Part shown: one piece after another, positions 15,291-23,110 of the stretch
How positions within the stretch are numbered: the stretch's first letter is position 1
Layout: every line of letters begins with the position of its first letter
Assembly (NCBI GenBank): GCA_951406725.2
Contig: OX597825.1
Coordinates: 2,294,001 to 2,358,000 of the forward strand
Length of the DNA stretch: 64,000 nucleotides
Source: Octopus vulgaris
Lineage: Eukaryota
Reading direction: 5' to 3'
Translations under genes and position numbers: made by a program
The notes under the pieces: generated by a model
The model's database searches: none
What the model was told of the DNA's origin: nothing
The model's input: the letters and a program-made list of their open reading frames with translations, nothing else

Positions 15291-15561
15291 GAGCATCATC
15301 GGCAGGCGACGTTATGCCAAACACCTGCTGTTGTGTATAAGACAGATCTGGTTATCGAGTCCTGTTGTGAAGAACCTCCGCCCTTTCCTTTGATTGATAA
15401 GTATTTATAATTCTTCTGACCTTGTTAAAAGAGGTCACTTGTTGGATCAGACTGAAAGGACTGAAAACTGACATCTTAAGGTCATCTGTCAATATCTCTT
15501 TCTTTGTCTCTCTTTCTCTCTCTCTTCATCTTTTTGTATGTGTATATATATATATATATAT

Positions 15562-15777
15562 ACTCTTTTACTCTTTTACTTGTTTCAGTCATTTGACTGC
15601 GGCCATGCTGGAGCACCGCCTTTAGTCGAGCAAATCGACCCCGGGAGTTATTCTTTGTAAGTCCAGTACTTATTCTATCCGTCTCTTTTGCCGAACTGCT
15701 AAGTGACAGGGACGTAAACACAATTGTCCAGCAATGCTAGGGGGACAAAAACTGACACACAAACACATACACACGCA

Positions 15778-15857
<80 letters not shown>

Positions 15858-16020
15858 TACGGCAGGCTTCTTTCAGTTTCCGTCTACCAAATCCACTCAC
15901 AAGGCATTGGTCGGCCCGGGGCTCTAGCAGAAGACACTTGCCCAAGATGCCACGCAGTGGGACTGAACCCTGAACCATGTGGTTGGTTAGCAAGCTACTT
16001 ACCACAGCCACTCCTGCGCC
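15562..16020 (-). mobile_element. Full-length SINE family A with internal microsatellite
   Basis: Head GGCGCAGGAGTGGCTGTGG, B box GGTTCAGTCCC, internal (TA)n(TATG)n, 3' GGCGGTGCTCCAGCATGGCCGCAGTCAAATGACTGAAAC and (GAGTAAAA)n tail. Confidence 0.93.
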
Positions 16021-20439: not shown

Positions 20440-20913
20440 GCCCACAACCTTCGAGACCTTTTGGTCCATAGCTCCTTCCCTGACCCTACCTCCCAACCCG
20501 GCTCGTTCCCCTGCTCCCGCCCACGTTGCCGCACTTGCCCTTACCTCTCCAACACCACCCGCCTCACTAGCACCCACCATCGACCCTATCCCATCATCCA
20601 CTCCTTCACCTGCACCTCCAGCAATATTATCTATTGCATCTCTTGCTCTCTCTGCAATTCCTTGTACATCGGACAAACGGGACGCCGCTTGGCTGACCGG
20701 TTCGCGGAACACCTTCGTGACATCCACCTTGCGAACGACACACCGGTCTCACGCCATTTCCGCTCCACCGGTCACTCCTTGCAACACCTATCTGTGTTCG
20801 GTTTGTCCTTACACAGAGGCCATCCGGATTCCCGTTTACGCCGTGAACAGGAATTAATCTTCTCTTCGCTCTTATACGCCATTTGGTCTCAACTCTCCCC
20901 CCTCCTCATCTAA
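20440..20913 (+). pseudogene. GIY-YIG endonuclease domain of the PLE ORF (5' truncated, frameshifted near 20865)
   Basis: ORF 20461-20913 carries the motifs. The conserved terminal RSYTPFGLN is in a different frame and no RT domain is present. Confidence 0.88.
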
Positions 20914-21732
20914 CCCCCTCTCCCCCCTCCTCACCTATCCTTTTCCCCCCGACCCCTACTTCTTCAGTCCTTCATCCTTTCACCCCTACTCCCCTTCCCT
21001 TCTTCCCTCTTTCTCCCTCCCTCTTCCCCTTCCCTCTGCTCCCTCACTCCCTCTCTCCCCTTCTCTCTCCCCCTCTCCCTCTTTCCTCCTTCATCCCCCT
21101 CCTCCCCCATCCTCTCCTCTTCCCCCTCTCCTCCCCCTCTTCTTCCCATCCCCTTCTCTCCCCTCTTCCCCTCCCCCTCTTCTCCTCACTACACCACATG
21201 ACTTTACACATCACATCACATATGATGTGCCATACTAATACACACACCAACTAATACATACTAATACGTACTAATACATACTAGTACATACTAATACATA
21301 CACCAACCCTATACATACACACGTCCAGACCCCGCATACGCACTTATACTCTCTCATACACACACACTTATACATACCAATACGTACTAATACATACTAA
21401 TACATACTAATACATACACCAACCCCATACATACGCACGTTCAGACCAATCCTACGCACTAATACTCTCTCATACACACACACACACACACACACACCCT
21501 TATACATACTAATACATACACCAACCCTATACATACACACATCCAGACCCCTCCTACGCACTTTTAGCTGGTCCCTCAACCCATTTATCAACCCTATTAT
21601 CTCCCCTTATTTCGCTCTCGCGTCTCATGTTTGATCTTTGACCTCTGGCCGAAATCAGATCGCCATGTTGATTCGTTCGCTACTGCACGCATTTTTTTTC
21701 TCTCCTTCTTTCTGTGTTTTTCTCTCTGTGTA

Positions 21733-21770
21733 TCTTTCTGTTGAAGAGCGTAGGCTCGAAACGTTAAAGA
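21733..21770 (+). ncRNA. Minimal type I hammerhead ribozyme variant in the PLE 3' end
   Basis: TCTTT-CTGTTGA-A-GAGC(GTAG)GCTC-GAAA-CG-TT-AAAGA: stem I TCTTT/AAAGA, 4-bp stem II, loopless palindromic stem III. Core has A6>U. Confidence 0.7.
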
Positions 21771-21844
21771 CTTGTTTTATTTATATTTCCTGAGCGCCAT
21801 ACTAATACAATTGTTCGTTTGTTTTCCACCTGCCTTCGTCTTTT

Positions 21845-21892
21845 AGACCTGTATCACAGTGATTTCATACTTACGTATTCATCAGCAGGCCT
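21845..21892 (-). ncRNA. Type I hammerhead ribozyme (inverted copy)
   Basis: Minus strand AGGCCTG-CTGATGA-ATAC(GTAA)GTAT-GAAA-TCAC(T)GTGA-TA-CAGGTCT; canonical core and all three stems. Confidence 0.88.
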
Positions 21893-21915
21893 GGATATAT
21901 CATACATAAACGACC

Positions 21916-22447
21916 CACGCTATCTACCTGACAATTTCTTGTTAAGTTTTCCTTATATAGTTGTCCTTAATTGCTAAATTTTTATTCCGAAAAACTTTTC
22001 CTTTCCCGAAATGCAATTCGTAAAAAGTCTGACATTTACAGGATGTAATATATGTAAACTCACCCATGTGCTTCGCTGATGTTGATCAGTTAGCTGATCG
22101 GCTTAGGCGAGGCAGGGTCGTTTATGTATGATATATCCAGGCCTGCTGATGAATACGTAAGTATGAAATCACTGTGATATAGGTCTATTTTTTAAATGTC
22201 TTACTTTGAAAAATTGCATTCGGTGGGATTAGTAATATTTTTGGTAGAAATGACTAATTGTCCCTCTTAGCGTGTGGCATGTATGTATAATGCCATCTGG
22301 CATGTATGTATAATGCCCTCTATATATAAATTAATATGTTCAATAAGAAATAATTATTTTCGAAATTTTTTCTCTTATGAGGTTTTCACGCTATCTACCT
22401 GACAATTTCTTGTTAAGTTTTCCTTATTAAGTAGTTGTCCTTAATTG

Positions 22448-22450
<3 letters not shown>
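21916..22450 (+). mobile_element. Candidate retrozyme / non-autonomous PLE-dependent element, about 471-bp unit with about 60-bp terminal redundancy
   Basis: Direct repeat 21916-21976 vs 22387-22450, one internal hammerhead, no ORF, ends in (TA)n. Confidence 0.65.
22139..22186 (+). ncRNA. Type I hammerhead ribozyme
   Basis: AGGCCTG(22139-45) CTGATGA(22146-52) ATAC-GTAA-GTAT GAAA(22165-68) TCAC-T-GTGA TA TAGGTCT(22180-86). Predicted cleavage 3' of A22179. Confidence 0.88.
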
Positions 22451-22497
<47 letters not shown>

Positions 22498-22680
22498 TTA
22501 TATATATATATATATATTACTACTGTCACCCCAACCGCCACTACGAAGTTCTTGCAATGAATCTACAGATAACAACACGGAGACGAAACTGTGGCGTTGC
22601 TTTACTCATCATGTATTTATACATTTTGTATAATTTCTCCATTATATATATATATATGTACATATATATGTGTGAAAGAA

Positions 22681-23110
22681 CAGGCGTGGCTGTGTGGTAA
22701 GAAGCTTCGTTCTCAATCACACTGTTCTAGGTTCACTCCCACTGCGCGGCATCTTGGACAAGTGTCTTCTGCTATAGCTTCTGGCCGACCAAAGCCTTTT
22801 CAGTGGATTTGGTAGACGGAAACTCAAAGAAGCCTGTCGTATACAAATGTGTGTGTGTGTTTGTATGTGTTTGTGTGTATGTATGTGTGTATGTGTGTAT
22901 TTATGCGTGTGTGTTTGTGTTTGTCCCCCACCTCATTTAACAACCGACTTCGGTGTGTTTACGTCCCTATAACTTATCAGTTCGGCAATATAGACCGATA
23001 GAATAATTACTAGGCTCACAAAGAATAAGTCCTGGGATCGATTTCATCGCCTAAAACTCTTTGAGACGCAGCTCCAGCACGGGCGCAGTCAAACGACTGA
23101 AACAAAAGAA
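22681..23110 (+). mobile_element. SINE family A, near full length, internal (TG)n
   Basis: Collinear with 27429-27846; more diverged. Confidence 0.9.

Follow-up and report, generated by a model that had tools for sequence, protein, structure and literature searches.

We found that the 64,000-nt stretch of Octopus vulgaris DNA analysed here (the window) carries an ordinary, damaged member of a young and abundant retrozyme family. As a whole, we favour with fair confidence the reading of a non-LTR retrozyme that typically inserts into TA microsatellites as a pair of opposed arms, likely through Penelope-type copying of one RNA, probably a circle. The evidence comes from the anatomy of 53 insertions, from the alleles shared between their arms and from the way in which the arms pass the predicted ribozyme cut site.

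In the window, the direct arm (21916-22450, plus strand) comprises 1.13 monomers at 97% identity to the family consensus, is truncated at its 5′ end, and has its 3′ end at a fixed site, A, whose motif TCCTTAAT lies at 22438-22445 (plus strand), with the element ending at about 22449. An earlier note on this DNA had described a terminally redundant unit, and the redundancy is borne out: 21916-21976 recurs at 22387-22450 (both plus strand, the second copy including site A) with a period of 471 (blastn E 1e-22) and one indel, a private 3-nt deletion in the first copy. The period of 471 is correct for this copy but specific to it, the family ranging over 475-481 and being mostly at 476. What the earlier note overlooked is an inverted arm of 73 nt at 21844-21916 (minus strand), which corresponds to consensus positions 203-275, is without (TA)n, and is an inverted copy of 22115-22187 with 72 of 73 positions identical. 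About 145 nt of the usual outer part of this arm are missing toward a second end site, B, which in the direct arm lies at 22316-22337 (plus strand) as the motif CCCTCTAT followed by a TA-rich run and at which the second arm of most insertions stops. An internal 23-nt tandem duplication (22275-22320, plus strand) forms a hairpin just 5′ of site B and differs in copy number between loci. The unit ends, as had been noted, in (TA)n, the target microsatellite read from the sequence at 22450-22518 (unstranded). Copies of a common SINE-like repeat with simple-repeat ends, 77-91% alike across the region, are present at 22673-23100 and 15560-16006 of the window.

A descriptor scan of both strands over all 64 kb confirmed the type I hammerhead motif that had been proposed at 22139-22186 (plus strand) and returned exactly two motifs, the other being a complete inverted copy at 21845-21892 (minus strand), which has the consensus C after the cut site. 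The window hammerhead has a 7-bp stem I with two G-U pairs and a third at U22180, the sequences CUGAUGA and GAAA, an AUA triplet, a 4-bp stem II capped by a GUAA loop, and a palindromic stem III; its cut is predicted 3′ of A22179. U22180 is private to the window copy (1 of 116 passes). Since the window copy has one sense hammerhead, release of a monomer by this copy itself is impossible. The Rfam search that had been suggested gave no hammerhead match at E≤1 over 15 kb, nor at E≤10 over 651 nt. The descriptor match and conservation are thus the grounds for the assignment; complete hammerheads were intact in 109 of 111 cases in the family sample, and 24 of 53 loci have an arm carrying at least two intact ones. 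The 9-bp hairpin reported earlier is also real, and it sits as the tip of a longer hairpin at 22069-22114 (plus strand; z -5.8), which is in turn the tip of the monomer's long predicted rod.

The monomer is predicted to fold (z -9.8 at locus L002) into this long rod with the hammerhead as a side branch, and the RNA structure is under selection. Inherited substitutions disrupt pairs at 12 of 48 positions, compared with 19 expected (P 0.007), and changes that followed insertion do so at 43 of 111; in L100 one compensatory pair in stem I is present on both arms. The 14 core positions show no inherited change, which taken alone is not significant (P 0.16). In the model, with core tertiary contacts ignored, the active fold is less stable by about 4 kcal/mol than the minimum-energy fold, in which the core is paired with stem III, and pairing of stem III between two copies is worth -11.5 kcal/mol. 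Such folds could keep a monomeric circle closed and permit cleavage as a dimer.

To sample the family, the window's own genome (2.8 Gb, 227 contigs) was searched with three queries, for each of which the best 40 candidates were scored. The queries gave 1352, 686, and 1187 first-look candidates, which are not copy numbers, and the best 40 of the 1352 were at 94-100% identity. The 110 fetched loci merged into 53 distinct insertions; these are the best-scoring, youngest copies most like that of the window, and the first query demanded an A end. Full monomers (n=51) are 468-481 nt long, mostly 476, and the consensus is 476 nt with a GC content of 33.6%. We number it c1-c476 from window position 21916, which places the predicted cut at c267/c268. 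The absence of an ORF from the unit was upheld, with 56 aa as the longest stop-free frame of the consensus.

All 53 insertions are built only of monomer sequence between (TA)n tracts, with no attached RT+GIY-YIG ORF. Two of the three outcomes that the earlier note had named as speaking against a retrozyme were a single-copy sequence and the pseudo-LTR of an ordinary Penelope-like element (PLE) fixed to an RT/GIY-YIG ORF; we find instead a multi-copy, non-coding, tandem, hammerhead-bearing family whose copies are not tied to an ORF. A non-coding unit, one type I hammerhead per unit, dispersed tandems, low GC, and a highly self-paired predicted RNA place the element, with high confidence, among the animal non-LTR retrozymes. 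Contigs from four runs presumed to be RNA cover most of the unit, two of them spanning the monomer junction, but genomic tandems would likewise do so, and these contigs do not count as a sign of expression.

Arms were counted when they reached at least 55 nt and 88% identity, which yielded 94 arms of 63-3705 nt. At their 3′ ends 87 of these abut (TA)5 or longer, and some of the other 7 are alignment slips at the internal duplication. Two sites, A at about c63-72 and B at about c411-427, account for the 3′ ends, and the 5′ ends are scattered. Free circular permutation of the copies, along the lines proposed earlier, is therefore not supported, as variation is confined to the 5′ ends. We observed two arms joined head to head in 39 of the 53 insertions, the other 14 being single-armed or irregular. 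Among the 39, 33 have the end pair A+B, one has A+A (L021), and none has B+B; two have one alternative TA-like end (L006, L110), and three have a truncated non-TA arm (the window copy, L024, L101). A script assigned 31 of the A+B pairs, and L102 and L022 were added by hand on reading of their ends. A+B thus makes up 33 of the 34 two-armed insertions with both ends at A or B, for which P is about 2e-9 under independent 1:1 choice (35/2^34), and the demand for one A end in the first query leaves the independent-choice expectation unchanged. Two single-armed insertions (L007, L028) begin at B within (TA)n and end at A, so that the B-to-A stretch is a direct terminal repeat.

The same pairing is seen in a sister family, which came to light through a 72% match next to one of the loci. 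A search for it gave 1869 candidates, from which 25 loci were fetched (L141-L165, with L149:1592-2284, minus strand, as an example). Its unit of 495-499 nt has 61% identity to that of the window family over the whole unit and a similar predicted fold, and its hammerhead has an A-C mismatch at the start of a longer, imperfect stem II. The sister family ends at the same two sites A and B; of 11 two-armed insertions, 10 are A+B and one is B+B-like (L154, with B on both sides; hand count). The spacing between A and B is 122 nt in the window family and 107 nt in the sister family. In both families the motif YCCTYWAT is present only at A and B, although it was derived post hoc from those four sites and is a lead. 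A third related family is hinted at by a small fold-back insertion (L173:2836-3171) and by contigs of several runs, at 69-77% to both families.

An inverted, 5′-truncated copy with a tail at one end and a microsatellite target are features of Penelope-mobilised DNA, and we consider Penelope-type mobilisation of the family to be very highly likely. Intact RT+GIY-YIG families exist in this genome and also end in (TA)n, among them a young PLE family (L196-L201, L206, L207) with many intact 781-aa RT+GIY-YIG frames that are 95-100% identical. Upstream of these frames lies a separate one that reaches up to 479 aa. Two PLE loci, L178 and L202, have an inverted arm with a tail on one side only. Neither retrozyme family matches any of 80 PLE-bearing loci (30 of 150 scored from 6136 GIY-YIG candidates, 20 chosen stretches, and 30 loci of the family next to the window copy), except where a retrozyme copy is near. 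A partner enzyme from the PLE class is plausible, at the level of the class rather than of an individual enzyme.

The PLE beside the window copy (20440-21843, plus strand) is unrelated to it, is 5′-truncated, and retains the GIY-YIG part only (Pfam match E 5e-4, below the curated cut-off). The unit had been placed right behind this element; a GIY-YIG-bearing element does lie upstream, but not directly, as the inverted arm intervenes. Full-length members of this PLE family (1219 candidates) have 1119-1177-aa frames with RT. At 20440-20913 the window PLE frame departs from its full-length relatives near the C-terminus, and at 21733-21775, near the PLE 3′ end, there is a minimal hammerhead-like motif with a non-canonical core. 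The other 29 fetched copies have about 25 nt more past the point where the window PLE stops, and then pass into (TA)n in 27 cases and into a tandem copy in 2; the window PLE has neither its last ~25 nt nor a (TA)n tract. A single deletion probably removed the PLE tail, the TA tract, and the missing part of the inverted arm, and priming at a non-standard site with target loss is a possible alternative. We rejected this PLE as a parent or co-inserted partner of the retrozyme: it is a separate family with zero shared sequence, and its unit-bearing members number 0 of the other 29 loci, apart from one 36-nt AT-rich match. The link to the adjacent PLE drawn in the earlier note is accordingly not supported; of the 53 insertions only two, the window copy and L104, lie 50 nt or less from the 3′ end of this PLE family. 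In the latter (L104:1487-1805) the retrozyme lies in the (TA)n tail of a PLE whose end is complete; as the window alone has 46 TA tracts of at least 16 nt, one extra case cannot separate chance from preference.

The two arms of an insertion carry the same alleles. Of 244 comparisons between opposite arms at 11 common polymorphic sites, 240 agree where 149 would be expected (32 loci, 28 fully concordant). Arm pairs are fully concordant in 19 of 23 cases when both arms come from one locus and in 282 of 2752 when they come from different loci, the 53 loci showing 18 allele patterns at these sites. Successive monomers agree in 243 of 248 site columns. Differences per 100 nt, for pairs that are not independent, amount to 0.69 within an arm, 0.77 between opposite arms, and 2.56 between different loci. 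It is very likely that both arms were copied from one RNA; gene conversion could also inflate the similarity within a locus. Locus-unique variants are common to both arms in only 8 of the 24 two-armed loci that have such variants in the overlap, as expected if most of them arose after insertion. A-to-I editing of the template was considered and is not supported, with A>G versus T>C counts of 3 versus 4 among uniform locus-unique variants and 5 versus 4 among shared ones.

Variation along the arms bears on the form of this RNA. With the internal duplication left out, 131 of 165 cases of variants found in at least two loci show uniformity within the locus; of the locus-unique variants, 25 are uniform, 83 single, and 5 partial. 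Additionally, 75 of the 94 arms traverse the cut site, 27 of them twice or more and one eight times, and no template-jump scars were found at the ribozyme cut site among 114 crossings, which fits a template that was not cut there. Longer-than-unit copies that pass the cut cleanly are what the circular RNA suggested in the earlier note predicts, but a very similar layout would be expected from an uncleaved linear multimer, and clean crossing does not separate a ligated circle from such a multimer.

A two-ended Penelope-type insertion from an uncleaved linear multimer, transcribed from a genomic tandem, is the strongest competitor. Here the hammerhead would be an inherited pLTR feature with another role or none, and arrays would grow later by duplication and gene conversion. 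Work with a purified PLE protein found uncleaved RNA to be the main template and ribozyme activity to be dispensable (PMC11167929, in the text available), which favours a multimer, and a recent preprint proposes, in its accessible text, local tandem amplification by unequal crossover (10.64898/2026.07.22.740005). The longest array in our sample also points this way: L102 (G000:C5:2041448-2045615), with 7 full monomers, has a three-monomer variant pattern that cannot come from one monomeric circle plus independent mutation, and hence implies later duplication, gene conversion, or a mixed template. Against the multimer, the uniformity of shared variants and of the 25 locus-unique ones would need a bottleneck of one monomer in every generation. 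The inner junctions, mostly overlaps of a few bases or short insertions, include none that is common to any two of the 39 two-armed loci, and the hammerheads have been kept intact at the frequency given above. We regard the multimer as unlikely, though it deserves to be taken seriously. A circle is favoured by the uniformity of inherited variants, with caution urged by L102 and by the in vitro PLE data, and we take a circular template to be probable.

That the inverted arm instead results from fold-back self-priming, or from L1-style twin priming at the TA-rich site B, with no programmed second start, is doubtful in the extreme. The TA run in site B is able to pair with a (TA)n primer, 10 of the 45 A arms have their 5′ end at c411-453, a short way beyond B, and self-priming has been proposed for inverted junctions of PLEs (PMC3846280, as far as its available text goes). 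Most A arms, however, extend well beyond B, and only 8 of 39 loci have their two 5′ ends no more than 35 nt apart, compared with 5.8 expected (hand count), so that the junctions are not fold-backs; A and B moreover have in common the post hoc motif that occurs nowhere else in either unit. Help from base pairing at B is compatible with our preferred explanation, two programmed starts on one RNA. Among B arms, the 5′ ends form clusters at c281-291 (8 of 43), c318-331 (7), and c90-98 (5), possibly as pauses on entering paired regions. Least probable of all is a cleaved linear monomer from whose 5′ end the enzyme jumps back to a 3′ end to give longer-than-unit copies. The one private ribozyme substitution of the window copy does affect the base immediately 3′ of the cut, but the consensus at c264-271 is matched by 108 of 114 crossings, with 3 copy-specific events, one an indel, compared with 2.8 expected, and there is no accumulation of 5′ ends at the cut (1 of 88 mapped ends at c263-273, within 5 nt of it).

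We tentatively propose that a single Penelope-type dimer, rolling round one circular RNA, writes each insertion from two programmed start sites, of which each DNA end uses one, a scheme to which we give somewhat less than even weight. In the broader reading that we favour, a genomic arm with at least two hammerheads would be transcribed and would self-cleave, probably as a dimer through the palindromic stem III, and the cleaved RNA would be ligated into a circle of ~476 nt, both by analogy with the retrozymes of mussel, coral, and axolotl. A Penelope-like RT-GIY-YIG protein acting in trans may then cut both strands of a (TA)n tract. One DNA end would prime at A and the other at B, ~122 nt upstream on the same RNA, if the enzyme is of the kind we infer. 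Each cDNA would extend for a variable distance, often beyond one full turn, and the two would be united head to head through short homology or the addition of a few bases, as seen in the observed junctions.

The element class and the inverted layout are already known. Retrozyme units of invertebrates are about 170-400 nt, with cleavage and circles demonstrated (Cervera and de la Pena 2020, PMC7229834, in its available text). Like those metazoan non-LTR retrozymes, the octopus family has non-coding units in tandem that each carry one type I hammerhead, a GC content of 34%, a highly self-paired predicted RNA, many dispersed copies, and PLEs in the same genome; unlike them, its unit is 476 nt, and it is known here from sequence, whereas cleavage and circles were shown for theirs. 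The words "octopus", "cephalopod", "inverted", "target site", and "microsatellite" are absent from the main text of that paper in the form available. With vertebrate retrozymes (Li, Clavereau and Pollet 2026, 10.64898/2026.07.22.740005) the family would share dependence on PLEs, and it shares the occurrence of monomers, dimers, and multimers and a unit within their range of 51-972 bp. In the accessible text of that study, which includes no mollusc, the evidence is co-occurrence and pLTR homology, arrays are ascribed to later tandem amplification, and one of nine predicted dimers cleaved when tested; the octopus family has no homology to the sampled PLEs, and its evidence is insertion anatomy.

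Endonuclease-bearing PLEs, as described in the available texts (Craig 2021, PMC8557442; PMC3846280; PMC11167929), offer the closest match in layout, with a head-to-head inverted 5′-truncated copy, a one-ended tail, two internal starts, AT-rich or microsatellite targets, and a hammerhead upstream of the 3′ end. The purified PLE protein of Frangieh 2024 (PMC11167929, same limit) both cleaves and extends the two strands, initiates at two internal positions, and has a predicted ability to form dimers. The octopus family differs from these elements in having no ORF, in a start-site spacing of 122 nt (107 nt in the sister family) as against 30-40, in a hammerhead that is canonical and not minimal, and in arms that are multimers of one short unit. 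Supplements and subscription papers aside, we found in the literature no description of the window family or of A+B pairing, and no published counts of end pairing or of allele sharing between arms. In the 2026 octopus repeat annotation (PMC13282606) the word "ribozyme" is absent from the main text as available, and its repeat library may hold the unit unclassified.

Two questions are left open in the accessible text of the cited papers, namely how retrozymes return to genomes and what causes the inverted copies and one-ended tail of Penelope-like elements. The octopus family gives counted genomic evidence on both in the form of A+B end pairs, alleles shared between arms, and scar-free passage through the cut site. 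With its 476-nt RNA, its two mapped starts, its (TA)n target, and the intact candidate enzymes encoded in the same genome, it could also allow a direct test of the model in the existing in vitro PLE assay. If the reading of a dimer on a circle is true, the inverted repeat and one-sided tail of Penelope would reflect an obligatory pairing of A with B, and retrozyme tandems would be written upon insertion, not grown afterwards.
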